This document shows positions 3,076 to 28,190 of a DNA stretch of 64,000 nt, piece after piece (position 1 is the first letter of the stretch; every line of letters starts with the position of its first letter). The position numbers and the translations under genes were made by a program. This DNA is from Escherichia coli (GTDB taxonomy: Bacteria > Pseudomonadota > Gammaproteobacteria > Enterobacterales > Enterobacteriaceae): the NCBI RefSeq assembly GCF_013122565.1, contig NZ_CP053258.1; one strand, 5' to 3'. Under the pieces are notes generated by a model. It had not been told where the DNA came from, searched no databases, and saw only the letters and a program-made list of their open reading frames with translations.

Positions 3076-3079
3076 CTGA

Positions 3080-4219
<1,140 letters not shown>

Positions 4220-5145: not shown

Positions 5146-5154
5146 TAATAGTGC

Positions 5155-5260
5155 ACGACTGCCGGATGCGGCGTGAACGCCTTATCCGCCTACATTTCGC
5201 CCGCAGGCCGTAGGCATGATAAGACGCGCATAGCGTCGCATCAGGCATCTGCGCACGACT
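5155..5260. repeat. REP/BIME cluster (two inverted REP units)
   Basis: gccggatgcggcgtgaacgccttatccgcctac and gcctgatgcgacgctatgcgcgtcttatcatgcctac-type palindromic units between convergent frmB and yaiL. Confidence 0.8.
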
Positions 5261-5269
5261 TATCTATGT

Positions 5270-5809: not shown

Positions 5810-5910
5810 CTTTGTTTCCAAACCCGCTGAATAATTTTTAGCGAGTATACCTGTAAACGCCGTGGGTGTATTGGGGGCAAGTCCCTTTCGCCCCTGCTTA
5901 ATAAGGCGCG

Positions 5911-7122: not shown

Positions 7123-7200
7123 AAGATGAACCTCGTTGCGAGTACAGGTGAATCGCGGCTGATACATTGTCAGCCGCGTAATCAGAACCATTTAATGACT

Positions 7201-7257
<57 letters not shown>

Positions 7258-7297
7258 TGGGATGGGCATACAAAATGCACGTTCTCGGCAGTCATCA

Positions 7298-8307: not shown

Positions 8308-8311
<4 letters not shown>
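7298..8311 (-). CDS. mhpE: 4-hydroxy-2-oxovalerate aldolase
   Basis: 337 aa, [20 protein letters not shown]-terminus (HMGL-like aldolase). Confidence 0.93.
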
Positions 8312-10073
<1,762 letters not shown>

Positions 10074-10940: not shown

Positions 10941-10957
10941 CATCTTCTCCTGCATAT

Positions 10958-11902
10958 TCAGTTCTCTGTTCTGGCGCTTAACGAGCCAAATCCGGCAATC
11001 CACTCCGGGATTGGGCGGTAATAACGCCCTTCGCTACGCCAGTTGCCAAATGCAGAAATAGCGGCAAAAGCGGCGACCCAGGTTTTGATTTCATGTGTCG
11101 ACTTTCCGGCAATGGCGGAAAGCTCTTCGTTACTGACGGCATCCAGTTCCTGTATGCGTCCCTGCTCCAGCAAAGTCATGAACTGGTTATCCCAAATCGG
11201 GTTGAGCGGATGCAGAGTTCTCTGATCCTCAACAAACTTCTCAGCGGCGCTAATCACCCTTTGCTGACGCAATTCGCGCTCACTGGCGGGTAAATCTTTC
11301 CCGCTCCCCAACAGACGGTCGCGCATATGGGCATCGGCTTTCGCCAGTTCGGGCACCGGCGGCTGATGGGAAAGCCCACCGGAACCCAGGAACAGCACGC
11401 GTTTATTGAGAGTGCTGGTGAAACGTCCAATGGCTTCACCCAACATGCGGGTACGCTGGAAACCGGGCAGCGGCGTGGCGACACCGTTGATGAACACAGG
11501 CAGAACTGGCACCTTATCCAGCCCACCGAGCAGGAACTCCAGCGGCTGGGCGAACCCGTGGTCCACCTGCATACAGTAAGAAACGGCAAGATCGATCCCG
11601 CTCTTCATGACGGCATGCGCACAGGCCTCCGCCAACTCCACAGGCACTGGCAGCTCTCCTGCCGCACTACCGAAATCACCAATTGCCGTCGCTCCAACGC
11701 CTAAACAGAACGGTGGCATCACGTCATAGAAAAAGCCGTTGTAGTGATCTGGCGCAAACAGCACCACCAGTTCAGGGGAGAAAGCCGCAATACGCTCGCG
11801 GGCGCTGGCAATCACGCCATCGACCTCATCGAGCACCTCTTGCGCCGGGTCGACATACCCCACCAGCGGCGAGTGGGAAAGACAGTGAAGATAAGCGTGC
11901 AT
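10958..11902 (-). CDS. mhpB: 3-(2,3-dihydroxyphenyl)propionate 1,2-dioxygenase (extradiol)
   Basis: 314 aa LigB-type extradiol dioxygenase. Confidence 0.9.
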
Positions 11903-11903
11903 A

Positions 11904-13568
11904 TCAGGCTACCTTTTCGACAGAAACGTCGGCATCAGGGCGGGTCAGCGTCATCACCGACGCCAGTTTATTCAGGGTCTTGCCCAGGGTTTGCGGAATG
12001 GCGGTGGCGGCAACAAAGCGATCCGGGCGCATCACCACCAGCGAAGCATTGTGTTGCGCGAACCAGCTACGCAGGCGACCTTGCGTATCCCCCACGCGTA
12101 GTACGCCGTCGTGGTTATCCTGTGCGGTATGAATTTGCACTTCCGGCACCACCTGAATGAAGCGTGTGCCCAACGCGCGCCACTGCTGGATTTGCTCGTC
12201 GCTCATCCCCCACAGTGGATTGCATCCCCAGCCAATTACCGCGAAGTTCGCGCCGATCGCGTTATCGAGTAGCGTCACGTCGCCGTTTTCCAGCGTGACT
12301 TTCGGCTGAATAAACATCTTGCCGACCGGAGAGTGCTTCGCCTCGCCCTCACGCACCAGCGCACCGCCGTAATATTGCGGCATCGGCTTGAAGCGCATTT
12401 CGAGGAAGTAGCGTTTTACTGGCGGCAGATAATTCAGCAGCCAGGAAACGCCGTCACGTAACGTACCCTGCCAGCGTTTCGGCGGAGCCAGCACGTTGCC
12501 CGCCGTCACGGACAGGTCAATCATCGCTTTGGCGTGATCGCGACGTTCTTGTTGATAGGTATCGAGCAGCGCATCGCGGGCTTTCCCCTGGATAACCAAC
12601 GCCAGTTTCCATGCGAGGTTAAAGGCGTCGCGCATACCACTGTTATAGCCCTGCCCCTGCCATACCGGCATGATGTGCGCGGCATCGCCCGCCAGCAGTA
12701 CGCGATCAATACGGAAACGTTGCGCCAGTCGCGCGTTGTGGGTGTAGACACGCTGGCGAATCAATTCAACATTGTCCGGATTAGGCAGCACTTTGCTTAA
12801 CAGCTTGCGCATATTTTGCGGCTCACGCAGCTGTTCTTCGGTTTCTCCCGGCATCACCATGAATTCAAAGCGACGTACCGCATGAGGCAACGCGGCAGAA
12901 ACATACGGGCGCACCGGATCGCAGCACAAATAGATATGCGGCGTACTTAATGGATCGTTGGCGATATCTACCACAATCCACTGATTTGGTGCAGTTTTAC
13001 CTTCAAACGGCACATTCAGGGTGCGACGGACAAAACTTGCCCCACCATCACAGGCCACCAGCCACTGGGCTTTGACTATTTCCCGCTGCCCTTCTGCCGT
13101 TTTCAGGTGCAAGGTCACTTCGTCATCTTGCTGACTGAAGACCTCCAGCTCGCGGGAAAACAAGCAGCGCACATTCGGAAAACGCGACACCCCTTCCAGC
13201 ATCACCGCATCGACCTGCGGCTGAATAAAGGCGTTACGGCGCGGCCAGCCAAATTCATCGGTCATTGGCTGAATATCAGCAAAACAGCGGCCCTTCGGGG
13301 TGAGAAAACGCATCGCGTGCCACGGCGTAGTATGCGGCAGAACATTATCGACCAGGCCGACCGACTGCATGGTGCGCAGCGCCTCGTCATCAATACCAAT
13401 CGCACGCGGGTAGTCGATCAACTTATCGAGTTTCTCCACCACCAGCACGTCAATGCCCATCTGGCCGAGATAGTTCGCCATCATCAGCCCGACCGGACCG
13501 GCACCAGCGATCGCCACCTGAACGCTATGGTTAACAGCAGGCTGGATGTCAGGGTGTTGTATTGCCAT
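11904..13568 (-). CDS. mhpA: 3-(3-hydroxyphenyl)propionate hydroxylase (FAD monooxygenase)
   Basis: 554 aa, N-terminal FAD fold [18 protein letters not shown]. Confidence 0.92.
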
Positions 13569-13709
13569 TTCAGTACCTCACGACTCGGACAAAATGCCGT
13601 TGCGCGCACAGTACAGCGCAACTTACTTTGTTAAAAACATGTAAATGATTTTTTATTGTGCGCTCAGTATAGGAAGGGTGTTTTCGGCTACAATCAAAAC
13701 ATGCCCGAA

Positions 13710-13726
13710 TGTGCACCAGGTGCACA
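13710..13726. promoter_or_regulatory. 17-bp perfect palindrome tgtgcaccaggtgcaca in the mhpR-mhpA divergent control region (candidate MhpR operator / CRP-like site)
   Basis: Perfect dyad symmetry located between divergent mhpA and mhpR starts. Confidence 0.55.
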
Positions 13727-13758
13727 ACGTTGTTTTAACTATAGAAATGTCAATTAAT

Positions 13759-14592
13759 ATGCAGAACAATGAGCAGACGGAATACAAAACCGTGCGCGGC
13801 TTAACCCGCGGTCTAATGTTATTAAATATGTTAAATAAACTTGACGGCGGTGCCAGCGTCGGGCTGCTGGCGGAACTCAGCGGCCTGCATCGCACCACTG
13901 TGCGGCGACTGCTGGAGACGCTGCAGGAAGAGGGATATGTCCGGCGTAGTCCCTCCGATGATAGTTTTCGTCTGACCATCAAAGTGCGGCAATTAAGCGA
14001 AGGATTTCGTGACGAACAGTGGATTTCTGCACTGGCGGCCCCACTGCTGGGCGATCTGTTACGCGAAGTGGTATGGCCGACAGATGTGTCCACGCTGGAT
14101 GTTGATGCAATGGTGGTACGCGAAACCACTCACCGTTTCAGCCGCTTATCCTTTCACCGGGCAATGGTCGGGCGACGTTTGCCGCTTCTGAAAACCGCCT
14201 CGGGCCTGACCTGGTTGGCCTTTTGCCCGGAACAAGAACGCAAGGAATTAATCGAGATGTTAGCCTCCCGCCCCGGTGATGACTATCAACTGGCACGAGA
14301 ACCGTTAAAGCTGGAAGCCATTCTGGCGCGCGCGCGCAAAGAGGGTTACGGACAGAACTACCGCGGCTGGGATCAGGAGGAGAAGATCGCCTCTATCGCC
14401 GTACCGCTGCGCAGTGAACAACGGGTGATTGGCTGTTTGAATCTGGTGTATATGGCGAGCGCAATGACCATCGAACAGGCAGCGGAAAAGCATCTTCCGG
14501 CACTACAACGGGTAGCAAAACAGATCGAAGAAGGGGTTGAATCGCAGGCTATTCTGGTGGCCGGACGGCGAAGCGGCGTGCATTTACGCTAG
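13759..14592 (+). CDS. mhpR: IclR-family transcriptional activator of the mhp operon
   Basis: 277 aa from MQNNEQTEYKTVRGLTRGL; IclR HTH plus effector domain; divergent from mhpA. Confidence 0.9.
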   Translation: MQNNEQTEYKTVRGLTRGLMLLNMLNKLDGGASVGLLAELSGLHRTTVRRLLETLQEEGYVRRSPSDDSFRLTIKVRQLSEGFRDEQWISALAAPLLGDLLREVVWPTDVSTLDVDAMVVRETTHRFSRLSFHRAMVGRRLPLLKTASGLTWLAFCPEQERKELIEMLASRPGDDYQLAREPLKLEAILARARKEGYGQNYRGWDQEEKIASIAVPLRSEQRVIGCLNLVYMASAMTIEQAAEKHLPALQRVAKQIEEGVESQAILVAGRRSGVHLR

Positions 14593-14706
14593 TTACGCCA
14601 ATGTGTAATTTGGCCCATTCTCATCGTTATTCGCCCATTTGCCCACATGCACAGTACGGGCTGCACGCTACGCTAATGACATCAATACTGTGATGTGGAG
14701 CAAATC

Positions 14707-15483
14707 ATGAAAATTACGCAAATTCGTAATGCCACCCAAATTATCCAATACGCTGGCAAAACATTTCTTATCGACCCGTTACTCGCGCCTAAAGGAAGTT
14801 ATCCGGGTTTTGCCGGAACGGCACGCGCAGAAATCCGCAATCCAACGGTAGAATTACCGTGCGATTTAACAACGTTACTCAACGTTGACGCCCTAATCGT
14901 GACCCATTTGCATGAAGATCACTGGGACGAAACAGCCTCCCGCGTCGTTCCTAAAGATAAACTGATTTATGTGCAAAATGAGCAAGATGCTGAATCACTG
15001 AATAAACAAGGATTTACGCATCTTACCGTACTTACCGACGAGACTAAATTTGGCGATATTACTCTGCATAAAACGACAGGGCAGCACGGCTCCGATCGCA
15101 CCTATGCCGACCCGGCTATGGCGAAGCGTTTAGGCGCAGCCTGCGGCGTTGTTTTCCAGCACCCGACAGAGAAAACGCTCTATCTGGCTGGCGATACCCT
15201 CTGGCGTGACGACGTCGAGGCTACAATGCTAACTTTCCAACCAGAAGTGGTTGTGTTGAATGCCGGATTTGCGCATGTTCTGGGGCATGGCGCGATAATT
15301 ATGGGAGCAGAAGATATTCTCAAAACACATTTTACCCTGCCAGAAGCGCAAATTGTCGCGACACATATGGAGGCCGTAAACCACTGTTTGCTGACGCGTG
15401 ATGCGCTCAAGGAATACGCCAGAGATAATCAAATTATCGAATTTGTGAACGTACCAGAAGATGGTGAAACGTTGACATTCTAA
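14707..15483 (+). CDS. MBL-fold metallo-hydrolase
   Basis: 258 aa; metallo-beta-lactamase signature THLHEDHWD (HxHxDH); GGAG SD 6 nt upstream; track ORF starts at GTG 14695. Confidence 0.75.
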   Translation: MKITQIRNATQIIQYAGKTFLIDPLLAPKGSYPGFAGTARAEIRNPTVELPCDLTTLLNVDALIVTHLHEDHWDETASRVVPKDKLIYVQNEQDAESLNKQGFTHLTVLTDETKFGDITLHKTTGQHGSDRTYADPAMAKRLGAACGVVFQHPTEKTLYLAGDTLWRDDVEATMLTFQPEVVVLNAGFAHVLGHGAIIMGAEDILKTHFTLPEAQIVATHMEAVNHCLLTRDALKEYARDNQIIEFVNVPEDGETLTF

Positions 15484-15502
15484 TTCGGAGATAAAGAGTG
15501 TT

Positions 15503-16456
15503 ATGCGCCCGCTAACTGTTGCCATTATCGCCGTTGCCGGTTTTAGTCCTTTTCACCTTTCCGTACCGTTTATCGTATTTAGCGAAAAAATGGCGGAGAA
15601 AAAACACTTTCACGTAATTATCTGCGCTGAAAAGCCGGGAAACGTGGACTCTGCCGATGGGTTTTCCGTAACCGCCACCCATGACTATACCGCAGTCATC
15701 CAGGCGGATATTGTGATAATTCCTTACTGGGGAACAATTACACAAAAACCGCCACAAAAACTGCTGGAAGCCTTAACGACCGCACGGGATAACGGCGCAC
15801 AGATTGTCGGGCTTTGCCTGGGCACGTTTGTGCTCGGCTATGCAGGTTTACTGAAAAATAAGCGTGCCGCCACGCACTGGGAGTTCGAGCGTGAATTTCA
15901 GGCACGTTTTCCACAAACACATCTGGATATTAACGCGTTGTACGTAGACGATGACGGCATTATTACCTCTGCCGGTACTGCCGCGGCGCTGGATTGCTGT
16001 TTGTATATTGTTCGGCAACATTTTGGCAGCGACTATGCTAACCATATTGCCCGACGGATGGTCGTACCGCCATATCGCACCGGCGGTCAGGCGCAGTTTA
16101 TTGAGCAACCAGTGCCGAAAAATACCCATGATGAACGCATAAACCTCCTGCTGGATTACCTGCGGCAAAACATTGCGCAACAGCATGATCTCGACTCGCT
16201 GGCGCAGCGAGTAATGATGAGTCGCCGCACATTAACTCGCCATTTTATGAAAGCGACCGGTTCGAGTATCGCCGAATGGCTCATTACTGAACGCTTACGC
16301 CGTAGCCAGGAACTGTTGGGATCCAGTCAGTTGCCCGTTGAGCGGATAGCGGCTGAGGTGGGTTTTCTCTCACCTGTGACCTGGCGTCAGCATTTTAAAT
16401 CTCACTTCGGCGTCAGCCCCGCCGAATGGCGCAAAACCTTTCGCGGTATGGCATGA
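15503..16456 (+). CDS. GlxA-family transcriptional regulator (DJ-1/PfpI domain + AraC-type HTH)
   Basis: 317 aa; N-terminal class I glutamine amidotransferase-like fold, C-terminal AraC HTH (RRTLTRHFMKATG ... SPAEWRK); 20 nt after MBL gene, probably co-transcribed. Confidence 0.8.
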   Translation: MRPLTVAIIAVAGFSPFHLSVPFIVFSEKMAEKKHFHVIICAEKPGNVDSADGFSVTATHDYTAVIQADIVIIPYWGTITQKPPQKLLEALTTARDNGAQIVGLCLGTFVLGYAGLLKNKRAATHWEFEREFQARFPQTHLDINALYVDDDGIITSAGTAAALDCCLYIVRQHFGSDYANHIARRMVVPPYRTGGQAQFIEQPVPKNTHDERINLLLDYLRQNIAQQHDLDSLAQRVMMSRRTLTRHFMKATGSSIAEWLITERLRRSQELLGSSQLPVERIAAEVGFLSPVTWRQHFKSHFGVSPAEWRKTFRGMA

Positions 16457-16650
16457 TAGCGCGTGCAGGAAAGTCAATTCAGGTTCCCCACTAACCAACT
16501 GAATTGTGGGAAGATTGCTTTATCAGGCTTAATACAAGCCATTCGGTAACAGTTTTTCTCGCTCCCGCCCTGTCACTCCTGTTGATTGTGCAATGTTACA
16601 AAAATGCTTCATTTTTGTTGATTTTCTACTGTGATCAATTCGGCAATATC

Positions 16651-16703
16651 CTCTCCTGAATTTCACCAGACTACTTCCAGCCCATTCGCAATATCAGGAG
16701 AGA
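16651..16703 (+). promoter_or_regulatory. Leader inverted repeat (ctctcctga ... tcaggagag) overlapping the Shine-Dalgarno of the acyl-CoA ligase gene
   Basis: 9-bp perfect inverted repeat; both arms preceded by gcaatatc; 3' arm contains the AGGAG RBS 4 nt upstream of ATG 16707. Confidence 0.35.
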
Positions 16704-16706
16704 CAA

Positions 16707-18263
16707 ATGAGCAGCACCTCCGCCGACTTCCAGAATTTGTATCAGGCACTGAGTCACAGCGCCGCCCGCAGTCCGAATGACCTGGCGCTGGCGTTTGAGG
16801 ATCAGCGCTATATGTACCGCGATTTTCACCTGCGGGTACAGCGGACGATGGCGCAACTTGACCGCAGCTGGTCGTTGCGCAAAGGCGACCGGATCCTGCT
16901 GGCCCTGGGGAATCATCCCGCTTTTTGCGAAGTCCTTTTTGCGGCAGTTGGTCTGGGCATCGAGGTGGTGCCTTTCAGCACTAAGCTTAAGCAGGCCGAG
17001 AGCGAGGAGCTGGTGGGTCATATCGCGCCCCAGGTCGTGCTGTTCGATGCAACCGTGCAGGACTGGCTGAAAAACACCCCCAACGCGCGCGCTGTTTCAC
17101 TTAGTGAATGGCTGGCGCTTTCTCTTCCCGAACCGCTGACTCGCCTGCCGGCCCAGGTTAACCGCGACGACACGGCGGTGATGATGTTTACCTCAGGTAC
17201 TACCGGGGAGCCAAAAGGCGCGATTATCACCCACCATAATCTGCTCTGCGCGATTGACGCCTATACGCAAAAACTGAATCTGACCGCTGCGGATAGCACT
17301 ATTCTGGCGGTGCCTATTTATCACATCACTGGCCTGTCGGCGCTGCTGGCGCTGTTTATTAGCCTTGGTGCGAGCATCTGGCTGCAACACCGGTTCAATG
17401 CCTCGCAGGTGATCAATACCCTGCGCGAGCAAAATATTACCTTTCTGCACGGCTCGCCAACCATCTTTATCCTCCTATGTCAGGCGGCACGCGAAATAAG
17501 CGACAGCCATCCGGGCGATTTTCCCGCGCTACGGACGATCGCTTGCGGTGCGGGCCACCTGAGCGACGGCCTTATCAAAGAGTTAAAAACGCTGTTCCCG
17601 CATACGGCAATTCAGCCGATCTACGGGCTCACCGAAACGACCTCACCCGCGACGATTTTTCCAGGCGACGTCTGGGGTAGCGAGAAATGCGGCAGTTCGG
17701 GCCAGGCGATCCCCGGCCTCACGATTACGATTCGCAACGATCGCCAGCAACGTCTCCCTGCCGGACAAATTGGGCATATCTGGCTGAAAGGCGATGTGGT
17801 CATCCGCGAGTACTGGCAGCACAGCGAAAGACGCCCGAGCTGCGATGAACAGGGCTGGTTTTGTACGGGTGATTTGGGCTATCTCGACGACGAAGGCTGG
17901 CTGTACATCAAAGACCGCAGTAAAGACATGATCAATCGCGGTGGGGAGAAAATTTACTCTCTGGAGCTGGAAAACATTCTCTCTACCTATCGGGGAGTAC
18001 GGGAAGTCGCCGTGATCCCGGCCCCCAGCCCGCTCTATGGTGAAGAGCCGGTGGCGTTTATCGTGCCGGACGGTCAACACCACCTGACAAGCGAAGAGAT
18101 CCTCTGCTGGCTGAAGGTCAAAATTGCCCGCTTTAAGCTTCCGGCACGCATTATTTTCACCCGCATTTTACCCCGTACCCATAACGGAAAAGTGAGCAAA
18201 CAACAGCTCAAAACACGCCTTGCGGAATCGATCATCACGTTATCAACGGAGGATAAACAGTGA
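16707..18263 (+). CDS. AMP-dependent synthetase / acyl-CoA ligase (class I adenylate-forming enzyme)
   Basis: 518 aa; AMP-binding motif TSGTTGEPKGA, downstream GYGLTE-like and adenylation core motifs. Confidence 0.85.
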   Translation: MSSTSADFQNLYQALSHSAARSPNDLALAFEDQRYMYRDFHLRVQRTMAQLDRSWSLRKGDRILLALGNHPAFCEVLFAAVGLGIEVVPFSTKLKQAESEELVGHIAPQVVLFDATVQDWLKNTPNARAVSLSEWLALSLPEPLTRLPAQVNRDDTAVMMFTSGTTGEPKGAIITHHNLLCAIDAYTQKLNLTAADSTILAVPIYHITGLSALLALFISLGASIWLQHRFNASQVINTLREQNITFLHGSPTIFILLCQAAREISDSHPGDFPALRTIACGAGHLSDGLIKELKTLFPHTAIQPIYGLTETTSPATIFPGDVWGSEKCGSSGQAIPGLTITIRNDRQQRLPAGQIGHIWLKGDVVIREYWQHSERRPSCDEQGWFCTGDLGYLDDEGWLYIKDRSKDMINRGGEKIYSLELENILSTYRGVREVAVIPAPSPLYGEEPVAFIVPDGQHHLTSEEILCWLKVKIARFKLPARIIFTRILPRTHNGKVSKQQLKTRLAESIITLSTEDKQ

Positions 18264-19852
18264 GTAACAAATTTATCAGCGCCCATGAAGCGGCGCAGTT
18301 AGTCACCAGCGGCGATACCGTCTGCACCGTCGGGATGACGCTTATCGGCGCGGCAGAATCCATTTTAGCGGCCATTGAAGCGCGCTTTCTGACCGAGGGC
18401 ACACCGCGCGATCTGACATTGTTACATGCCGCAGGGCAAAGCGATCGGCAGCGCGGCATTCAGCACTTCGCCCATCAGGGAATGGTGACGCGGCTTATCG
18501 GTTCGCACTGGGGCCTTGCGCCGCGCTGGATGGCGATGATCAACAACAACGAAGTGGAAGCCTGGTGCCTGCCGCAGGGGCAGATCGTCCATCTTTATAG
18601 CGCGATGGCCGCCGGACTTACAGGGCGACTCTCCCCCGTCGGGCTGGGTACTTTTGTCGATCCGCGCATAGAAGGCGGGCGGATGAATGCCCGTACCCGC
18701 GAAAAGCCAGATCTGATTGAGCATGTGATGTTTCGCGGCGACGAGTATCTGTTTTATCCAGCCATTCCCCTGAACGTCGTCATTGTGCGCGGAACTCATG
18801 CCGATGAAGACGGCAACCTCACTACGGATGAAGAGGTCATGAAACTGGAAGTTCTGCACGCGGTTCTCGCCGCCAGACGTTACGGGGCGAAGGTGCTGGC
18901 GCAGGTGAAATATCGTGTGGCGAAAGGTTCGCTGCATCCGAAAAGCGTCACCGTTCCTGGCAACCTGATCGATGCCATTGTGGTGTGCAACGAGCCGCAG
19001 ACGGATCACCGCCAAAGCTCCAGTTGGGACTTCGATCCGGCACTGTGCGGCGATATCCAGTTGCCCGCAGCGCAGAATGCGCCGCTGCAACTCGACCTGC
19101 GCAAACTTATCGGGCGGATCGCCTGCCGCTATCTGACGCCCGGCTGTGTCATCAATCTTGGCACCGGGATCCCCAATGATGTGATTGGCGCCATCATCCA
19201 TGAAGAACAGCTCGGCGAGCAAGTCACCATCACCGTTGAATCGGGGATCTACGGTGGGCAGCAGGCGGGCGGCGTTGATTTTGGTATCGGTCGTAATCTG
19301 AGCGCGATGATAAGTCACCAGGATCAAATGCTCTATTACAACGGCGCGGGCGTCGATATCACCTTTATGGGTGCCGGCGAGATGGATCCGCACGGTCACG
19401 TCAACGCCACGCGGCTCGGTGCATCCTGCCCCGGCGCAGGCGGTTTTATCGACATCACGCAGAATGCCCGCCACGTCGTGTTCTGCTCCTCTTTTACCGC
19501 CAAAGGGCTGGAGATTGCCTGTGAAAATGGGCAGTTGCATATCCTGCGCGAAGGCGAGGTACGTAAGTTCGTCGCCGGGGTTAATCAGATTTCTTATAAC
19601 GGTGAGCTGGCCCGCAACAAAGGCCAAACCATGCATTACGTCACCGAACGGGCAGTGTTCGAACTACGTCCGCAGGGACCGGTGCTGACGGAAATCGCCC
19701 CCGGCATCGATCTTGAGCGCGACATCCTGGCACATATGGATTTTCGTCCGGCTATCGCCGGGGATCTTAAGGTAATGGACAGCCGTTTATTTGCCCCGCA
19801 GCCCTGTGGCCTGGCGGAACATCTGTCCCACAATTCATCCTCTGACTCATAA
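18260..19852 (+). CDS. Family I CoA-transferase, fused alpha/beta (YdiF-like acyl-CoA:acetate/3-ketoacid CoA transferase)
   Basis: 530 aa; architecture and ESG glutamate region resemble E. coli YdiF; GTG start overlaps ligase stop by 4 nt with GGAGGA SD. Confidence 0.8.
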   Translation: MSNKFISAHEAAQLVTSGDTVCTVGMTLIGAAESILAAIEARFLTEGTPRDLTLLHAAGQSDRQRGIQHFAHQGMVTRLIGSHWGLAPRWMAMINNNEVEAWCLPQGQIVHLYSAMAAGLTGRLSPVGLGTFVDPRIEGGRMNARTREKPDLIEHVMFRGDEYLFYPAIPLNVVIVRGTHADEDGNLTTDEEVMKLEVLHAVLAARRYGAKVLAQVKYRVAKGSLHPKSVTVPGNLIDAIVVCNEPQTDHRQSSSWDFDPALCGDIQLPAAQNAPLQLDLRKLIGRIACRYLTPGCVINLGTGIPNDVIGAIIHEEQLGEQVTITVESGIYGGQQAGGVDFGIGRNLSAMISHQDQMLYYNGAGVDITFMGAGEMDPHGHVNATRLGASCPGAGGFIDITQNARHVVFCSSFTAKGLEIACENGQLHILREGEVRKFVAGVNQISYNGELARNKGQTMHYVTERAVFELRPQGPVLTEIAPGIDLERDILAHMDFRPAIAGDLKVMDSRLFAPQPCGLAEHLSHNSSSDS

Positions 19853-19863
19853 GGAAATTAACT

Positions 19864-20598
19864 ATGAAACTAGCCAGTAAAACGGCCATTGTCACCGGCG
19901 CCGCGCGCGGTATCGGATTTGGTATTGCCCAGGTGCTTGCGCGAGAAGGTGCCCGAGTCATCATCGCCGACCGCGACCCACATGGCGAAGCCACTGCCGC
20001 ATCCCTGCGCGAACAGGGTGCCCAGGCGCTGTTTATCAGCTGCAATATTGGCGATAAAACGCAGGTTGAAGCGCTGTTTTCCCAAGCCGAAGAAGCGTTT
20101 GGCCCGGTGGATATTCTGGTTAATAACGCCGGTATCAACCGCGACGCCATGTTGCACAAACTCACTGAAGCGGACTGGGACACGGTGATTGACGTCAATA
20201 TGAAGGGCACGTTTCTCTGTATGCAGCAGGCGGCAATCCGTATGCGCGAGCGCGGCACGGGCCGCATTATCAATATCGCTTCCGCAAGCTGGCTTGGCAA
20301 CGTTGGGCAAACCAACTATTCGGCGTCAAAAGCGGGCGTGGTCGGGATGACTAAAACCGCCTGTCGCGAACTGGCAAAAAAAGGGGTCACGGTTAACGCC
20401 ATCTGCCCCGGTTTTATTGATACCGATATGACGCGCGGCGTCCCGGAAAACGTCTGGCAAATCATGATCAACAAAATTCCTGCGGGCTACGCCGGGGAGG
20501 CGAAAGACGTTGGCGAGTGTGTGGCGTTTCTGGCGTCCGACGGCGCGCGCTATATCAATGGTGAAGTGATTAATGTCGGCGGCGGCATGGTTCTGTAA
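19864..20598 (+). CDS. Short-chain dehydrogenase/reductase (FabG-like 3-oxoacyl / 3-hydroxyacyl oxidoreductase)
   Basis: 244 aa; TGAARGIG cofactor motif, catalytic YSASK (YxxxK); AAGGA SD. Confidence 0.85.
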   Translation: MKLASKTAIVTGAARGIGFGIAQVLAREGARVIIADRDPHGEATAASLREQGAQALFISCNIGDKTQVEALFSQAEEAFGPVDILVNNAGINRDAMLHKLTEADWDTVIDVNMKGTFLCMQQAAIRMRERGTGRIINIASASWLGNVGQTNYSASKAGVVGMTKTACRELAKKGVTVNAICPGFIDTDMTRGVPENVWQIMINKIPAGYAGEAKDVGECVAFLASDGARYINGEVINVGGGMVL

Positions 20599-20608
20599 GG
20601 GGAAAAAG

Positions 20609-21799
20609 ATGATACAGGCTAATGATATTGTGGTGGTCAGCGGCGTCCGTACCGCTATTGGCACGTTTAATGGCAGTCTTAAGCATACCCACCAGCATGA
20701 CCTGGGGGCAGCGGTCATTCGCGAAGCGGTCAGCCGCGCCGGACTTGCGCCGAAAGATATCGATGAAGTGATCGTCGGCAACGTTGGGCAAATCGCCGAA
20801 AGCGGTTTTATCGCCCGCATCTGCCAGCTTCGGGCGGGGATCCCGCAGGAAAGTACCGCGTATTCGGTTAACCGCCAGTGCGGCTCCGGTCTACAGGCCC
20901 TGGCAGACGGCATGATGCAGCTACAAAGCGGTCAGGCCGATGTCGTCGTCGCCTGCGGAACTGAAAATATGACCCAACTGCCCTACTACCTGCGTAAAGC
21001 GCGGGATGGCTATCGCATGGGTCATGGCGAGCTGGAAGATGGTCTGATTTCTATCCTCACCTGGCCTGAAGGGCCTTATCACAACGGCATCACGGCGGAA
21101 AACGTCGCGCAACAGTTCGGGATCACCCGCGAAGCGATGGACGATTTCGCCTGGTCAAGCCAGCAGAAGGCGCTGAAAGCCATCGCGCAGGATCGCTTTC
21201 GCGAACAGATCCTGCCCCTTGAAGTGCCGGACGGCAAAAAAGCCTCCCGCCTGTTCGCGGTTGATGAACACCCGCGTGACACCCCACGCGAAAAGCTCGC
21301 CACGCTGCGACCGGCATTTAAAGCCGACGGCGTGGTGACGGCAGCCAACTCATCCGGCATTAACGACGGTGCGGCTGCGCTGGTGATGATGACCCGTCAG
21401 CAGGCGGAAAAGCGTGGCTTAACCCCACTAATGCGGATCCGCGGCTGGGCGGTTGCCGGCTGCGGCGCAGATATCATGGGCTTTGGCCCTGCTCCCGCGA
21501 CCCGGCGTCTGATGGACCGTCTCAATATGGATGTCCACGCCATAGATTTAATTGAACTCAATGAGGCCTTCGCCGCCCAGGCGCTGGCGGTGATGAACGA
21601 TCTGCGTCTCGATCCGGCCCGCGTCAACGTTAATGGCGGCGCAATCGCCCTCGGACACCCGGTGGGTGCCAGCGGTGCGATCTTGCCGGTCAAACTCATG
21701 TATGAAATGGCGCGCAGCGGTGCACGTACCGGTCTGGTCACGATGTGCATCGGCGGCGGTCAGGGAATTTCTATGCTGTTCGAGCGCGAAGGCGCTTAG
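20609..21799 (+). CDS. Thiolase (acetyl-CoA C-acyl/acetyltransferase)
   Basis: 396 aa from MIQANDIVVVSGVRTAIG; active-site NRQCGSGLQA, C-terminal GHPVGASG and CIGGGQG motifs; track ORF begins 12 codons earlier. Confidence 0.85.
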   Translation: MIQANDIVVVSGVRTAIGTFNGSLKHTHQHDLGAAVIREAVSRAGLAPKDIDEVIVGNVGQIAESGFIARICQLRAGIPQESTAYSVNRQCGSGLQALADGMMQLQSGQADVVVACGTENMTQLPYYLRKARDGYRMGHGELEDGLISILTWPEGPYHNGITAENVAQQFGITREAMDDFAWSSQQKALKAIAQDRFREQILPLEVPDGKKASRLFAVDEHPRDTPREKLATLRPAFKADGVVTAANSSGINDGAAALVMMTRQQAEKRGLTPLMRIRGWAVAGCGADIMGFGPAPATRRLMDRLNMDVHAIDLIELNEAFAAQALAVMNDLRLDPARVNVNGGAIALGHPVGASGAILPVKLMYEMARSGARTGLVTMCIGGGQGISMLFEREGA

Positions 21800-21807
21800 G
21801 AAAAGAC

Positions 21808-21830
21808 GGCCCGAAGTGGGGCTTCGGGCC
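21808..21830 (+). other. GC-rich hairpin (ggcccgaag tgggg cttcgggcc) between thiolase and MFS genes; no U-tract
   Basis: 9-bp perfect stem with 5-nt loop 9 nt after thiolase stop. Confidence 0.4.
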
Positions 21831-21934
21831 GAGCGTCGTTCGGGCCAGTACCCGGCGACAACCTATGAGCTGACGAACGGGATCGTGTCGATCCCGGCAA
21901 GGCTTCTGACCACGAATACGGGGAAATAATAACC

Positions 21935-23272
21935 ATGTCCGCAATAAATGAAAAGGTGATAAACGGGACGCAGCTACAACGCACCCATAAAAAGATCTAC
22001 CGCCATTTGATGCCGCTACTTATCGTGGCGTACATCATAAGCTTTATTGATCGTACCAATATCGGCATGGCGAAAGCGACCATGTCGGTGGATATCGGCC
22101 TTTCCGCAACCGCATTCGGCCTCGGAGCCGGGTTGTTTTTTCTCACCTACGCAGTGCTGGAGATCCCAAGCAACCTGTTTTTAACCCGAATTGGCGCGCG
22201 GCGCTGGATCGCCCGCATCATGATCACCTGGGGAATCATCTCCTGCGGCATGGCGTTTGTCACCGGACCTACGTCATTTTACGTGATGCGCTTATTGCTC
22301 GGCGCCGCCGAAGCGGGGCTGTATCCGGGCATTATCTACTACCTGACCCTTTGGTTTGGTCGCGAAGAGCGCGCGAAAGCCACCGGCCTTTTCCTGCTGG
22401 GGGTCTGTCTGGCCAATATTATCGGTGCGCCGCTGGGCGGATTGTTATTAAACCTTGATGGTATGTCCGGCTGGCACGGCTGGCAGTGGATGTTTTTTAT
22501 CGAAGGGCTGCCTGCGATACTGCTGGCGTTTGTCGTCTGGCGCAAGCTGCCGGATAAACCTGCCGATGCTCGCTGGCTGGACAGCAACGACGTGCAGGCC
22601 ATTAACGCGGTGCTGGAGAAAGAAGCGCAAGAGACGCGTCATACACCAAACCGCTTCTCCCTCAAAACCGCACTCACCACCCGCGTATTTTTGTTGCTGG
22701 TGCTGATTTACTTTACCCACCAGTTTTCAGTTTACGGCCTGAGTTATTTTCTGCCGGGGATCATTGGTAGCTGGGGCCAGCTTACGCCGCTGCAGATAGG
22801 TCTGCTGACCGCTATCCCGTGGATTGCAGCGGCGGCTGGCGGCATCCTGCTGCCGCGTTTCGCCCGGACGGAACAGCGTTCACGCAGAATGCTGATGGCC
22901 GGATACCTGGTCATGGCCACCGGCATGGCGATTGGTGCAATTTCCGGTCACGGCGTTGCGCTGCTTGGCTTCTCGCTGGCCGCTTTCATGTTCTTCGCTA
23001 TGCAATCCATCATCTTTAACTGGCTCCCCTCGATCATGAGCGGGCATATGCTGGCGGGTAGCTTCGGCCTGCTTAACTGCCTTGGTCTGTGCGGAGGCTT
23101 TCTCGGGCCGTTTATTCTCGGTGCGTTTGAGGATCGAACCGGCGCGGCAACGTCAGGTTTATGGTTCGCCGTCGGGCTGTTGATTGTCGGCGCGTTGGTA
23201 TCTCTGTTCATCAAAGGTTCGTCATCCCTGGGCCATGCTTCGGCAAAACAGGCCTGTGGCGAAAAAGCTTAA
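21935..23272 (+). CDS. MFS transporter, anion:cation symporter (ACS) family-like (hydroxy-acid/aldonate-type permease)
   Basis: 445 aa, 12 predicted TM segments, FIDRTNIG motif typical of ACS-family permeases. Confidence 0.75.
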   Translation: MSAINEKVINGTQLQRTHKKIYRHLMPLLIVAYIISFIDRTNIGMAKATMSVDIGLSATAFGLGAGLFFLTYAVLEIPSNLFLTRIGARRWIARIMITWGIISCGMAFVTGPTSFYVMRLLLGAAEAGLYPGIIYYLTLWFGREERAKATGLFLLGVCLANIIGAPLGGLLLNLDGMSGWHGWQWMFFIEGLPAILLAFVVWRKLPDKPADARWLDSNDVQAINAVLEKEAQETRHTPNRFSLKTALTTRVFLLLVLIYFTHQFSVYGLSYFLPGIIGSWGQLTPLQIGLLTAIPWIAAAAGGILLPRFARTEQRSRRMLMAGYLVMATGMAIGAISGHGVALLGFSLAAFMFFAMQSIIFNWLPSIMSGHMLAGSFGLLNCLGLCGGFLGPFILGAFEDRTGAATSGLWFAVGLLIVGALVSLFIKGSSSLGHASAKQACGEKA

Positions 23273-23285
23273 TTAAGAGGTTCTT

Positions 23286-24164
23286 ATGCGCATCGAAGTC
23301 TTACTGGATTTAAAAACACGGCTCGGTGAAAGCCCGGTCTGGGATGTCGAACAACAGCGCCTTTGGTGGGTGGACAGCCTTGATGGACGCCTGTTTGCCT
23401 GTAATGCGCAGGGCGGCGCGATTAAGAGCTGGGATGTACGGCAGAAAATTGGCTCTTTTGCCCTACGCCAGAACGGGGAAGGCGCGGTGGTGGCGCTTCA
23501 AAATGGCGTTCATCTGCTCGACTTCGCCAGCGGCGAGCTGACGCTGCTGCACCACCCGGAAGCGGACCGCCCCTTTAACCGACTTAACGATGGCAAAGTC
23601 GATCGTCAGGGACGCTTTCTGTTCGGGTCAATGGATATGCGCGAGGAGGAGCCGAGCGGCGCGCTGTATCGCCTGGACGCCGATCTATCACTGCACGTAC
23701 TGAAGAAAAATATCATCGTCTCCAACGCCCCCTGCTGGAGTCCATCCGGCGAGACGTTTTATTTTGCCGATACCTGGTCGGGCAAAATCCGCGCCTGGGA
23801 TTACAACACCGCGACCGGAGATATCTCCGCAGAACGGCTCTTTTGCCATGTCGATCGCAGCGAAGGCGGCGCAGCGGATGGTGCTACCGTGGACAGCGAA
23901 GGGTGTCTGTGGAATGCGCTGGTCTACGCGGGCAAGTTAGTACGCTACACGCCGGAAGGGCAGATTGATCGCATCATTGAGATGCCGGTGAAAAAAGTCA
24001 CCAGTGTGATGTTCGGCGGCGAAAATCTCGACGTGCTGTACGTCACTTCAATGGCGCAGCCGCCCCTGGCGCGTTTCCCGGAAGATAATCAGTTGCGTGG
24101 CAGCCTGTTCGCCATTTACGACCTGGGCGTGACCGGCGTTGCGGAACGGCGTTTTGCCGGATAA
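23286..24164 (+). CDS. SMP-30/gluconolactonase/LRE-family lactonase (regucalcin-like beta-propeller)
   Basis: 292 aa; family motifs SPVWD, NDGKVDRQGRF, DGATVDSEGCLW; AAGAGG SD. Confidence 0.8.
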   Translation: MRIEVLLDLKTRLGESPVWDVEQQRLWWVDSLDGRLFACNAQGGAIKSWDVRQKIGSFALRQNGEGAVVALQNGVHLLDFASGELTLLHHPEADRPFNRLNDGKVDRQGRFLFGSMDMREEEPSGALYRLDADLSLHVLKKNIIVSNAPCWSPSGETFYFADTWSGKIRAWDYNTATGDISAERLFCHVDRSEGGAADGATVDSEGCLWNALVYAGKLVRYTPEGQIDRIIEMPVKKVTSVMFGGENLDVLYVTSMAQPPLARFPEDNQLRGSLFAIYDLGVTGVAERRFAG

Positions 24165-24254
24165 GCGAACTTTCGGTTCGCCGCGATAACCATAATACGC
24201 GGCGAACTGACTCTGACCCTGACACATGGCGGCGCGCCGTGGAGTAAAAAAACT

Positions 24255-25592
24255 ATGACAACACTCAATCAAATACCTGCCAGCAAACGCGATGGAAAAA
24301 AGCGGCTGATCCACCGTTTCTCCTGGGTTTCATTGCTGGTTTGCTGGCTTATCTGGGTGCTCAACGCCTACGATCGCGAGATGATCCTGCGCCTTGGCCC
24401 GGTGATTTCTAAGGAGTTCTCGCTCTCGCCGGAACAATGGGGGAACGTCGTAGCACTGATTATGGTGGCCCTTGCGGTGCTGGATATCCCGGGCGCCATC
24501 TGGAGCGATCGTTACGGATCAGGCTGGAAGCGAGCACGCTTTCAGGTGCCGCTGGTGCTGGGCTACACCGCGTTGTCTTTTATCTCCGGGATAAAAGCTG
24601 TCAGCCACGGTCTGACGACCTTTGTATTGCTGCGCGTTGGGGTCAACCTCGGGGCTGGCTGGGGCGAGCCCGTCGGCGTCAGCAACACCGCAGAGTGGTG
24701 GCCGAAAGAGAAACGCGGTTTCGCGCTGGGGGTGCATCATACCGGTTATCCCATTGGCGCACTGCTAAGCGGTGTCGTGGCAAGCCTGGTACTTTCCACA
24801 TTTGGCGAAGGTAACTGGCGCTACTGTTTCCTGCTGGCGCTGATCGTCGCTATTCCGCTGATGCTCTTCTGGGCGAAATATTCCACCGCCGCCCGAATCA
24901 ACACGCTTTATCAGCATATCGATAGTCAGGGAATGACGCGCCCGGCGACGCAGGAAAGCAATCATGTTGCGAAAGGCGAAGGGCTGAAAACGTTTTTACG
25001 TACCCTGCGCAATCGCAATATTTCGCTGACGGCAGGCAATACTCTGCTGACGCAGATTGTCTATATGGGCATTAACGTTGTGCTGCCGCCGTATCTTTAT
25101 CATGTCTCCGGCCTGTCGCTGGCAGCATCCGCCGGGATGAGTATTATCTTTACGCTTACTGGTACTCTGGGGCAGATAATTTGGCCCTGGCTGTCCGACA
25201 GTTTTGGTCGTAAACGTACCCTGATTGTCTGCGGTCTGTGGATGAGTATCGGCATTGCACTGTTCTATTTCGCCACGAATATGCCGCGCCTTATCGCCAT
25301 TCAGCTATTTTTTGGACTGGTGGCAAACGCCGTGTGGCCTATCTATTACGCAATGGCCTCGGACTCCGCCGAAGAACGCGCCACCTCTACTGCAAACGGA
25401 ATTATCACCACGGCAATGTTTATTGGCGGTGGCATTTCGCCATTGCTCATGGGCTGGCTAATTCAGCTTGGTGGGGGTTGGGAAAACCCGGCGGGTTATA
25501 TCTACGCCTTCTTTACGATGGCGGGATGTGCGCTGCTGGGGATGCTGTTGCAGTTAATGACCAGTGATAAAACGCCGCGCAAAGCGCATTAA
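24255..25592 (+). CDS. MFS transporter (second permease of the cluster)
   Basis: 445 aa polytopic protein with MFS loop motif (SDRYGSGWKR), GGAG SD. Confidence 0.75.
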   Translation: MTTLNQIPASKRDGKKRLIHRFSWVSLLVCWLIWVLNAYDREMILRLGPVISKEFSLSPEQWGNVVALIMVALAVLDIPGAIWSDRYGSGWKRARFQVPLVLGYTALSFISGIKAVSHGLTTFVLLRVGVNLGAGWGEPVGVSNTAEWWPKEKRGFALGVHHTGYPIGALLSGVVASLVLSTFGEGNWRYCFLLALIVAIPLMLFWAKYSTAARINTLYQHIDSQGMTRPATQESNHVAKGEGLKTFLRTLRNRNISLTAGNTLLTQIVYMGINVVLPPYLYHVSGLSLAASAGMSIIFTLTGTLGQIIWPWLSDSFGRKRTLIVCGLWMSIGIALFYFATNMPRLIAIQLFFGLVANAVWPIYYAMASDSAEERATSTANGIITTAMFIGGGISPLLMGWLIQLGGGWENPAGYIYAFFTMAGCALLGMLLQLMTSDKTPRKAH

Positions 25593-25605
25593 TTCAGGAG
25601 AACGC

Positions 25606-25728
25606 ATGAAGATTGTTATCGCGCTGGATCCTTTTAAGAGTCGGCTCCTCGCAGACGCTGCGGAGAATGTTATACGAACCTTTGTGAGCGGACGACGCAA
25701 AGAGAAACATAAGCGGATGACCTTATGA
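25606..25728 (+). pseudogene. 40-codon ORF resembling the N-terminus of glycerate kinase (GarK/GlxK-like remnant), translationally coupled (ATGA) to the CdaR-family gene
   Basis: Translation MKIVIALDPFKSRLLADAAENVIRTF... resembles the MKIVIAPDSFKESLSA N-terminus of glycerate kinases (recalled from memory); strong AGGAG SD; stop overlaps cdaR-like ATG. Confidence 0.35.
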
Positions 25729-26882
25729 TTATTACGACGGCGCTGGCTAATGAAATTGTCACCAGGGCGATGGCAATCATTCATCATAACGTGAACGTAA
25801 TTGACCATTATGGACAGATCATTGCCTCAGGTGAACGGCATCGTATCGGCGAGCAACATGAAATCGCCCGTGAGGTGATACGCACGGGTAAACGCATTTG
25901 TATTAACAACGCTGCTGAAGCCGCGCGTTTTAAGAATGTGCTTCCGGGTATTAATCATCCCATTATCTATGACGATCGCGTGGTGATGGTTGTGGGTATC
26001 AGCGGCGATCCCGCAGCGATCAGCCGCTATGCTGAACTGGCGGTGCTCACCGCCGAGCTGCTGGTCCGCCAGGCCGCCGAGATGCAAGAAACCAACTGGC
26101 GACAGCGCCTGCGCGATACCTTGTTTTGTCAGTATCTTGAGCAAGGTACCTCGCCCGCCGGGCAGGAATCACTCCATCGCCTGCTCGAAACTGGCTTCGC
26201 TTTTGATGCGCCGCTGGTACCAGTCGTCGTATCAGTGCAGGTTGAGCAGCACCAGCTAAGCGAAATTTTAAGTACGCTGCTGCGGGAGTTCTCCCGGTTG
26301 GCCGGGGTAAGAGACGTTATTTTGCTCGGCAGCAATGAGATTTTACTCCTCAATACGCTGAGCGAACCGCAGGAAACATTGCTGCGCAGCATTGAGTTTG
26401 TTCTTAGCAATCAGATCAGTCATTACCATATCGGGATAGGCGTACAGGCGGATAGCGCCCCGGATATTCGCGAGGCCATCAGATTCGCCCGTTCGGTGAT
26501 TGAAGTTGGGAGCAAAGTGCAGCCACAGCGGCAGATCTACTATTTTCGCGAAATGGCCATGCTCTGCCTGTTCCGGGTACTGGAAGACAGCTATATGGTG
26601 AATTTTTTTATCAATAATGTCCGCCAGTTGCTTGAACATGATTCTGGCGAAGTGCTGCTGGATACCCTGAGCAGCTTTATTGCCAATAACGCAGAGCTGG
26701 GTAAAACATCGCTGCTGTTGGGTATTCACCGCAATACGCTCACCTATCGTCTACAGCAGATAAAAAAGCATATCCAGCTCGATCCGATGGTCTTCACCGA
26801 CCTGACGCAACTGGCGGTGTCGGTACACTGCTATCGTCGGCAGAACCCGCGCCAGAGCGAATGGATCGATAGCTTAAGTTAA
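25725..26882 (+). CDS. CdaR/SdaR-family (sugar diacid regulator-like) transcriptional regulator
   Basis: 385 aa; N-terminal diacid-regulator domain and C-terminal PucR-type HTH; overall architecture like E. coli CdaR. Confidence 0.8.
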   Translation: MIITTALANEIVTRAMAIIHHNVNVIDHYGQIIASGERHRIGEQHEIAREVIRTGKRICINNAAEAARFKNVLPGINHPIIYDDRVVMVVGISGDPAAISRYAELAVLTAELLVRQAAEMQETNWRQRLRDTLFCQYLEQGTSPAGQESLHRLLETGFAFDAPLVPVVVSVQVEQHQLSEILSTLLREFSRLAGVRDVILLGSNEILLLNTLSEPQETLLRSIEFVLSNQISHYHIGIGVQADSAPDIREAIRFARSVIEVGSKVQPQRQIYYFREMAMLCLFRVLEDSYMVNFFINNVRQLLEHDSGEVLLDTLSSFIANNAELGKTSLLLGIHRNTLTYRLQQIKKHIQLDPMVFTDLTQLAVSVHCYRRQNPRQSEWIDSLS

Positions 26883-26930
26883 AACGCGATGGGGTCAGTT
26901 CATTATTTCAAAGAGCATAAGTACAGGAAC

Positions 26931-26972
26931 AAATGTCGGATGCGCCACTGGGCACATCCGACAATCTTTTAT
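26931..26972. terminator. Bidirectional hairpin terminator between the cdaR-like gene and cynX
   Basis: tgtcggatgcgcc actg ggcacatccgaca stem (one mismatch) flanked by T-rich tracts on both strands; REP-like sequence. Confidence 0.6.
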
Positions 26973-27003
26973 TGTTCCATTGTCTCGCAAAACAAGCGTC
27001 GCA

Positions 27004-28158
27004 TCATGCCTCTTTGACCCACAGCTGCGGAAAACGTGCTGGTGCAAAACGCAGGGTTATGATCATCAGCCCAACGACGCACAGCGCATGAAATACCCAG
27101 TCCATCAGGTAATTGCCGCTGATACTACGCAGCACGCCAGAAAACCACGGGGCAAGCCCGGCGATGATAAAACCGATCCCCTGCATAAACGCCACCAGCT
27201 TGCCAGCAATAGCAGGTTGCACAGAGTGATCGAGCGCCAGCAGCAAACAGAGCGGAAATGCGCCGCCCAGACCTAACCCACACACCATCACCCACAATAC
27301 CGGCAATTGCAGCGGCAACCAGATAAAGCCGCAGAACCCCACCAGTTGTAACACCAGCGCCAGCATTAACAGTTTGCGCCGATCCTGATGGCGAGCCATA
27401 GCAGGCATCAGCAAAGCTCCTGCGGCTTGCCCAAGCGTCATCAATGCCAGCAAGGAACCGCTGTACTGCGCGCTGGCACCAATCTCAATATAGAAAGCGG
27501 GTAACCAGGCAATCAGGCTGGCGTAACCGCCGTTAATCAGACCGAAGTAAAGGCCCAGCGTCCACGCGCGGGGAGTGAATACCACGCGAACCGGAGTGGT
27601 TGTGGTCTTGTGAGAAGAGGCGACCTCGCGGGCGCTTTGCCACCACCAGGCAAAGAGCGCAACAACGGCAGGCTGCGCCCACCAGGCGAGTGTTTGATAC
27701 CAGGTTTCGCTATGTTGAACTAACCAGGGCGTCAGGGCGGCACCAAGTCCACCGCCGCCCATCAGAGCCGCGGACCACAGCCCCATCACCAGTGGCGTGC
27801 GCTGCTGAAACCGCCGTTTAATCACCGAAGGCATCACCGCCTGAATGATGCCGATCCCCACCCCACCAAGCAGTGCGCTGCTAAGCAGCAGCGCACTTTG
27901 GGGGTAAAGCTCACGCATCAATGCACCGACGGCAATCAGTAACAAACTGATGGCGACGCTGCGACGTTCGCTGACATGCTGATGAAGCCAGCTTCCGGCC
28001 AGCGCCAGCCCGCCCATGGTAACCACCGGCAGAGCGGTCAACAGGGCAGCCACGCTAAAGCTCATTCCGCTTGCCTGGCGCAATTGCGGTAGCAGTGGCC
28101 CGACGGAGGTGAGCAGTGGTCGCATATTAAGACCAATCAGCACCAGAACCAGCAGCAT
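27004..28158 (-). CDS. cynX: Cyanate MFS transporter
   Basis: 384 aa from MLLVLVLIGLNMRPLLTSVGPLL; follows cynS. Confidence 0.9.
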   Translation of the reverse strand: MLLVLVLIGLNMRPLLTSVGPLLPQLRQASGMSFSVAALLTALPVVTMGGLALAGSWLHQHVSERRSVAISLLLIAVGALMRELYPQSALLLSSALLGGVGIGIIQAVMPSVIKRRFQQRTPLVMGLWSAALMGGGGLGAALTPWLVQHSETWYQTLAWWAQPAVVALFAWWWQSAREVASSHKTTTTPVRVVFTPRAWTLGLYFGLINGGYASLIAWLPAFYIEIGASAQYSGSLLALMTLGQAAGALLMPAMARHQDRRKLLMLALVLQLVGFCGFIWLPLQLPVLWVMVCGLGLGGAFPLCLLLALDHSVQPAIAGKLVAFMQGIGFIIAGLAPWFSGVLRSISGNYLMDWVFHALCVVGLMIITLRFAPARFPQLWVKEA

Positions 28159-28190
28159 CGTGAACGTCTTTTGATGGTTACGCATGGCTG

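Follow-up and report, generated by a model that had tools for sequence, protein, structure and literature searches.

The window, by which we mean the whole 64,000-nt stretch of DNA that was analyzed, carries an island of about 10.4 kb (positions 16484 to 26916) in place of lacI-lacZYA. The island lies between a gene for a GlxA-family regulator (15503-16456) and cynX (27004-28185), and in the annotation of E. coli GPEC1446 lacI-lacZYA is found between the same two genes. Its limits are the points where homology to E. coli breaks: this homology stops at 16483, and it restarts either at 26986 (L024) or at 26917 (419 genomes). The edges of the island showed no integrase, IS element or flanking repeat, and when 5,426 complete E. 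coli genomes were compared, not one had the island. It is a horizontal acquisition. In the literature we found no relevant description of a lac replacement between mhpR and cynX.

On the left of the island, the frm-mhp-mhpR side (window 2001-16483) was up to 99.2% identical to some E. coli strains, and on the right cynXST-cynR-codA was 98% identical to E. coli. The right-hand 25 kb (39001-64000, the prp-bet side) reached at best 96.3% identity to any of the 5,426 complete genomes, which points to a divergent E. coli-like lineage and suggests a cryptic-clade-like Escherichia with recombinant segments. The segment from 26917 to 27000 matched the 419 E. coli genomes at only 85.7%, in stretches without any annotated feature, and may be a repeated (REP-like) element. 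A hairpin with a 13-bp stem (TGTCGGATGCGCC...GGCACATCCGACA, 26934-26963) is located between cdaR and cynX, which converge on it, and probably terminates transcription in both directions.

The island genes are encoded on the + strand. They specify an acyl-CoA synthetase (16707-18263), a CoA-transferase (18260-19852), an SDR dehydrogenase (19864-20598), a thiolase (20609-21799), a first MFS transporter (21935-23272) and an SMP-30/gluconolactonase-type lactonase (23286-24164), assigned from Pfam and NCBIfam matches and from the identical contig L002. These are followed by a second MFS transporter (24255-25592; Pfam and NCBIfam), by a 40-codon ORF immediately 3' of it and by cdaR (25725-26882), which encodes an intact CdaR-family transcription regulator of 385 aa. 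The regulator has Diacid_rec (2.8e-41), GGDEF_2 and HTH_30 (PucR-type HTH) domains in Pfam and falls into the CdaR family in NCBIfam. Contig L002 was found by a look-up of the 40-codon ORF, while an exact-protein look-up of the window's CdaR returned nothing. All of the operon genes are equal in length to their K. oxytoca counterparts.

A cluster of this kind has been described in K. michiganensis M5al, where mutant fitness data showed that growth on 2-deoxy-D-ribonate requires it (Price et al. 2019, mSystems, PMC6365646). In the proposed route deoxyribonate is converted to deoxyribonyl-CoA, which is oxidized to 3-keto-deoxyribonyl-CoA, from which the thiolase yields glyceryl-CoA and acetyl-CoA; glyceryl-CoA is then converted to glycerate, and the glycerate kinase of the cluster carries out the last step, with 2-phosphoglycerate as the product (PMC6365646). 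The gene order in M5al is CoA synthetase, CoA-transferase, beta-hydroxyacyl-CoA dehydrogenase, thiolase, MFS, lactonase, MFS and glycerate kinase (PMC6365646). Gene content and order in the window and in L002 match this description (PMC6365646), save that the kinase is reduced to a scar, and the second MFS gene of the window stands at the position of BWI76_RS23725. This match to M5al is one of gene content and order, with K. oxytoca and K. grimontii serving as sequence proxies for M5al. A CdaR-family regulator gene after the kinase was seen in the related loci read here. An earlier note on this DNA had tentatively linked the origin of the cluster to a sugar-diacid locus. This link did not hold up, as the gene content and order are those of the K. 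michiganensis 2-deoxy-D-ribonate acyl-CoA pathway; judged by its genes, the cluster is a deoxyribonate-type catabolic pathway and not a sugar-diacid locus, despite its CdaR/SdaR-type regulator.

The 40-codon ORF runs on the + strand from an ATG at 25606 to a TGA at 25726-25728 and encodes the peptide MKIVIALDPFKSRLLADAAENVIRTFVSGRRKEKHKRMTL. Reading toward it on the same strand, the TAA of the MFS gene (25590-25592) is followed by TTC, AGGAG (25596-25600), AACGC and the ATG, which places the start of the ORF 13 nt beyond the MFS stop at 25592. The AGGAG, a Shine-Dalgarno sequence (SD) 5 nt before the ATG, has a predicted anti-SD duplex of -7.4 kcal/mol. At its 3' end, the ORF overlaps cdaR in an ATGA stop/start sequence (25725-25728, + strand, read directly). 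The strong SD and the overlap are thus present as the earlier note had described them, and the comparisons below indicate that the overlap is ancestral.

The same note had likened the peptide to the N-terminus of GarK/GlxK-type glycerate kinases and had proposed that the ORF could be a fossil of a deleted glycerate kinase gene. Searched alone, the 40-aa peptide matched no Pfam or NCBIfam family, even at E ≤ 10, and no glycerate kinase in the PDB (phmmer). In a word-indexed search of a 5.8-billion-protein collection it matched only its own cluster of 40-aa proteins, which consists of four near-identical variants. When E. coli GarK was compared with the 64-kb window by tblastn, the score at the ORF was not significant (E 3.2) and no other glycerate kinase was detected in the window. 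By pairwise BLASTP, 11 of 23 residues were identical in E. coli GarK (E 5e-4) and 12 of 24 in E. coli GlxK (E 1e-4). Taken alone, these searches would leave the proposed kinase origin unproven; its support comes from the related loci set out below.

To obtain related loci, we scanned relatives of the regulator, one genome per species, which gave ten usable loci. In seven of the ten, the cdaR homologue is preceded by a kinase ORF of full length, listed at 391-401 codons. Five of these loci, from K. grimontii, K. oxytoca, a Klebsiella-like contig, Raoultella and Enterobacterales CwR94 (L003-L006 and L012), have a kinase gene of 391 codons between the MFS gene and cdaR. The intact kinase of these loci starts with MKIVIALDSFKGS and ends with ...LLADAAENVLRTFLSGRRGEAHKRITV and the stop, it has the same SD as in the window (AGGAGAAC), and its TGA overlaps the ATG of cdaR (kinase end at 10004, cdaR start at 10001). 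The AGGAG stands at equal spacing ahead of the full-length kinase in L003-L006. In [Erwinia] mediterraneensis and a Serratia (L010 and L011) the kinase is present and the position of its stop differs. The K. oxytoca kinase (L004) is a TIGR00045 glycerate kinase, with a score of 433 bits against a cut-off of 168.

Two of the sequences encountered in these comparisons carry doubtful labels. L005 (JAJUHI010000021.1), labelled "MAG: Sporobacter termitidis", has a Klebsiella-type cluster with a cdaR protein 94% identical and is probably mis-binned. L013 (NZ_JANQTQ...), a 379-bp contig of 0.97x coverage, comes from an assembly of Halomonas elongata; its identity to cdaR is 99%, and it is probably contamination.

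Aligned with the K. oxytoca L004 gene by blastn, the window showed two blocks separated by a gap in the kinase. The 5' block, which takes in the last part of the MFS gene, extends to kinase nt 36 (window 25641) and is 91.4% identical over 163 nt. The 3' block begins at kinase nt 1092 (window 25644) and is 89% identical; downstream of 25644 the DNA is collinear with the 3' end of the kinase gene and with cdaR. The deletion junction therefore lies at 25642-25643, with an ambiguity of about 2 nt, between the end of the first block and the start of the second. The length that is missing (1,176 nt in the intact gene less 123 nt in the remnant) is 1,053 nt, or 3 x 351.

The peptide told the same story. 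By BLASTP against the L004 kinase, residues 1-11 aligned with kinase residues 1-11 (10/11 identical), and residues 13-40 aligned with kinase residues 364-391 (21/28, or 75%, identical; E 1e-13). The C-terminal part of the kinase, corresponding to the region of codons 13-40, was also found by tblastn (E 6e-8). Thus codons 1-12 (MKIVIALDPFKS, 25606-25641) are the kept 5' end of the kinase gene, and codons 13-40 with the stop (RLLADAAENVIRTFVSGRRKEKHKRMTL*, 25642-25728) are its kept 3' end, kinase codons 364-391.

Together with DNA that is collinear at 89-91% on both flanks of a 1,053-nt gap, these alignments bear out the proposal of a kinase fossil: the 40-codon ORF is very probably the scar of an in-frame, 1,053-bp deletion within the glycerate kinase gene of the cluster, and consists of kinase codons 1-12 and 364-391. 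The resemblance to the N-terminus of GarK and GlxK stands for the first 12 or so residues, whereas residues 13-40 correspond to the C-terminal tail. E. coli GarK and GlxK, which are glycerate 2-kinases, share with the scar peptide the N-terminal motif MKIVIA.D.FK, and the likeness is limited to about 11 residues; the C-terminal residues of the scar come from a different kinase subfamily. Since residues 13-40 are the C-terminal tail of the kinase, the apparent match of residues 12-24 to GarK and GlxK is coincidental.

The ancestor of the island very probably had a glycerate kinase gene of about 391 codons between the second MFS gene and cdaR, as is still the case in Klebsiella, Raoultella and their relatives, and a single 1,053-bp deletion took out kinase codons 13-363. 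Because the deletion was in frame, the SD, the ATG, the last 28 codons, the stop and the ATGA overlap survive as a single short ORF; the AGGAG, formerly that of the kinase gene, now serves the 40-codon ORF, and the overlap with cdaR is inherited from the intact kinase-cdaR pair. Using the K. oxytoca sequence in place of the donor's, we considered a deletion between AGCT copies that lie near both breakpoints, and rejected it as this microhomology would give a different, out-of-frame junction.

The product of the scar cannot be a kinase. Family membership would show as a significant match to the TIGR00045 or PF02595 (Gly_kinase) profile along a two-domain protein of some 370-390 aa, and the 40-aa peptide has no such match. 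By descent, the scar is a pseudogene of the glycerate kinase family and not a functional member. Compared with BWI76_RS23730 of K. michiganensis M5al, as represented by K. oxytoca L004 and K. grimontii L003, it has the same position, gene order, SD and ATGA overlap, but it lacks 351 of 391 codons, the kinase fold and the catalytic residues, and it resides in an Escherichia chromosome rather than in Klebsiella. Like other bacterial pseudogene remnants that arose by internal deletion, the scar combines one large deletion with relaxed amino-acid constraint and a function that is redundant in the new host. Unlike a typical remnant of this type, it keeps an open reading frame and both of the original translation signals, and for this reason gene callers predict a 40-aa hypothetical protein at this position or nothing.

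The four variants of the 40-aa protein occur on at least 30 contigs, from isolates that include three NCBI assemblies and from many metagenomes, and their context is always the same. These contigs represent 13 haplotypes whose divergence reaches 2.4% within the 2.6 kb compared, and all 13 share one junction and are free of indels. The deletion was one old natural event, since an identical junction is common to at least 30 independent contigs. Every copy that we saw in an Escherichia context carries the deletion, and no allele with an intact kinase was found in that context among the island contigs (at least 30). DNA-pattern scans of JGI metagenome contigs with the right island junction and with the kinase 5' end likewise revealed no intact Escherichia allele and no closer donor.

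A change of Ser9 to Pro (GAT TCG to GAT CCT) creates a BamHI site, GGATCC, at 25627-25632 (codons 8-9), beside the junction; the site is present in all natural haplotypes. We considered whether this site betrays an engineered deletion and rejected the idea, given that independent isolates and metagenomes, at least 30 in all and with 13 haplotypes, carry the same allele. Ser9 and Gly12, which are consensus residues in the intact kinases read here, are both already substituted in the scar.

We compared the changes in the scar among haplotypes with those in the genes on either side. The scar had 2 synonymous and 4 nonsynonymous changes (L7P, V27L, K34Q and M38I), as against 81 synonymous and 20 nonsynonymous changes in the MFS gene and cdaR together (Fisher p = 0.022). 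These data indicate that the scar's amino-acid sequence is drifting under relaxed constraint. For cdaR itself the counts were 41 synonymous and 11 nonsynonymous, and the gene is under purifying selection. The same appears to hold for the rest of the island, in which codon positions 1+2 changed at 0.013 substitutions per site and fourfold sites at 0.129.

Some carriers showed rearrangement or further disruption nearby. In one lineage with the same scar (L025:300-1101), the left side of the island adjoins yaiL (DUF2058), and the mhp operon, mhpR and the GlxA-family gene are missing. In one sample (L021/L038; cynX region at L038:5280-6461) cynX is split into ORFs of 193 and 153 aa, and in another carrier (L028:6828-7720) the island lactonase is split into ORFs of 222 and 91 aa; both are signs of further decay.

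Loss of the kinase was probably tolerated because garK is a core gene of E. coli. It is present in 5,424 of the 5,426 complete E. coli genomes, and E. coli K-12 also has glxK; the argument is drawn from other E. coli, as the window does not reach the glycerate kinase genes of the host itself. The garK gene of the host, and often glxK as well, would supply glycerate kinase in trans, while the remaining pathway, from deoxyribonate to glyceryl-CoA together with acetyl-CoA and on to glycerate, would stay under purifying selection.

The overlap of the scar with cdaR raises the question of whether the two are still translationally coupled. Between the MFS gene and cdaR we found no sigma-70-like promoter and no terminator-like site on the + strand, so that cdaR is probably co-transcribed with the operon. 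The stop of the scar ORF overlaps the start of cdaR at 25725-25728, as expected of overlapping cistrons on one transcript. In E. coli, trpE-trpD and trpB-trpA are translationally coupled overlapping pairs with an ATGA-type stop/start overlap. The arrangement in the window resembles these pairs in its 4-nt ATGA, its weak downstream SD and its strong upstream SD; it differs in that the upstream partner is a 40-codon deletion remnant and that coupling is here a prediction.

To assess this, we estimated the strength of the cdaR SD duplex with the 3' end of 16S rRNA. It was -3.3 kcal/mol in the window, and between -3.2 and -3.9 kcal/mol across the window and all six loci in which a kinase ORF overlaps the cdaR start. 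The value was -4.3 kcal/mol in the Serratia locus (L011), where the kinase stops 24 nt upstream, and -5.7 to -5.8 kcal/mol in the three loci that lack a kinase (L007-L009), which represent only two or three lineages. All other genes of the cluster had SD duplexes of -5.7 to -9.5 kcal/mol. Wherever an upstream ORF overlaps cdaR, the SD of cdaR is therefore the weakest in the cluster. An SD that is weak under the overlap and stronger where the kinase is missing makes residual coupling plausible: the scar would still be translated from its strong inherited SD, and ribosomes that end at the ATGA would reinitiate on the weak-SD cdaR, keeping the ancestral coupling alive.

The kinase-less loci have features of their own. 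In Franconibacter / "Enterobacter" pulveris (L007 and L008) and Affinibrenneria (L009), the MFS gene and cdaR are separated at about 9904-10000 by a GC-rich, hairpin-containing spacer of about 100 nt. The cdaR gene has a stronger SD in these loci, GGGCGGA. Short motifs in these loci also resemble the kinase SD region (for example CAGAAGAAC compared to CAGGAGAAC), a hint of independent, earlier deletions of the kinase gene.

It could be speculated that coupling is the reason why the scar exists. If CdaR synthesis, and hence induction of the operon, needs ribosomes that arrive from an upstream ORF, only an in-frame deletion that left a translated ORF ending at the ATGA could have been fixed, and the scar would be an exapted bridge kept by selection for coupling. 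Its origin would be the one described above, and the difference would concern selection alone. Such a role agrees with the strong SD and ATG that were retained, with the lack of a promoter or terminator to separate the scar from the operon, and with a cdaR SD that is weakest under the overlap. It also agrees with the slow change of the scar, which has no indel in the 13 haplotypes and 0.050 changes per site compared to 0.129 at fourfold sites (Poisson P = 0.006), although fourfold sites may overstate the neutral rate of non-coding DNA. However, the spacers within the operon changed as slowly or more slowly (0.011-0.037), and the low rate may reflect effects at the level of mRNA or of mutation. 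The reading frame by itself is no proof of selection, as one deletion in three keeps the frame by chance, and with divergence at only about 2% a neutral ORF of 123 nt would usually stay intact anyway. The sample of kinase-less loci is tiny, and those species show that cdaR can be expressed without an upstream ORF. We consider selection for coupling a possible but doubtful explanation of the scar, also in the form in which the deletion followed the entry of the island into Escherichia, once the kinase had become redundant.

Another possibility, also raised in the earlier note, is that the ORF encodes a leader peptide or functional micro-protein, whose product or translation senses a metabolite or ribosome stalling and thereby controls cdaR. 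In position the ORF is what one would look for, since it is short, has a strong SD and lies immediately ahead of a regulator gene that it overlaps, but nothing else fits. Both halves of the ORF and all of its signals are inherited from the kinase gene. Four of its six substitutions are nonsynonymous, including L7P and M38I, compared to 20 of 101 in the neighboring genes (p = 0.022), and the peptide matched no family in Pfam, NCBIfam or the PDB and, in the 5.8-billion-protein collection, only its own four-variant cluster. The RNA has a predicted minimum free energy of -42 kcal/mol against a mean of -44.1 for shuffled sequences (z = +0.52), and 138 of 200 shuffled versions were equally or more stable; alternative hairpins are absent, as is any hairpin of the terminator type from the stretch between the ORF and cdaR. 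Neither the unusual RNA structure nor the conserved peptide or regulatory codons that would mark a leader or attenuator were thus found, and a regulatory role of this kind is very unlikely. Refuted by the alignments is the further reading that the ORF is an N-terminal stump of about 26 kinase codons followed by unrelated, out-of-frame or junk codons; the BLASTP alignments to GarK and GlxK do span residues 1-23 and 1-24, but only residues 1-11 or 1-12 are N-terminal, and residues 13-40 match kinase residues 364-391 at 75% (E 1e-13).

The scar is best read as ordinary gene decay, a pseudogene remnant with a neat anatomy that may still pass ribosomes to cdaR. For annotation, this means that a feature now given as a 40-aa hypothetical protein, or left as a gap in some assemblies, should be labeled as a pseudogene of glycerate kinase that carries an internal, in-frame deletion, and that a deoxyribonate-type pathway, not a sugar-diacid locus, is the proper reading of the cluster. 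That a deoxyribonate island has replaced the lac operon in this Escherichia lineage is more notable than the scar itself. The locus would provide an example of a transferred pathway that sheds a step already supplied by its new host while the ancestral translational arrangement of its regulator survives. If the coupling proves to be necessary, it would further mean that the architecture of an operon limits which deletions can be fixed.
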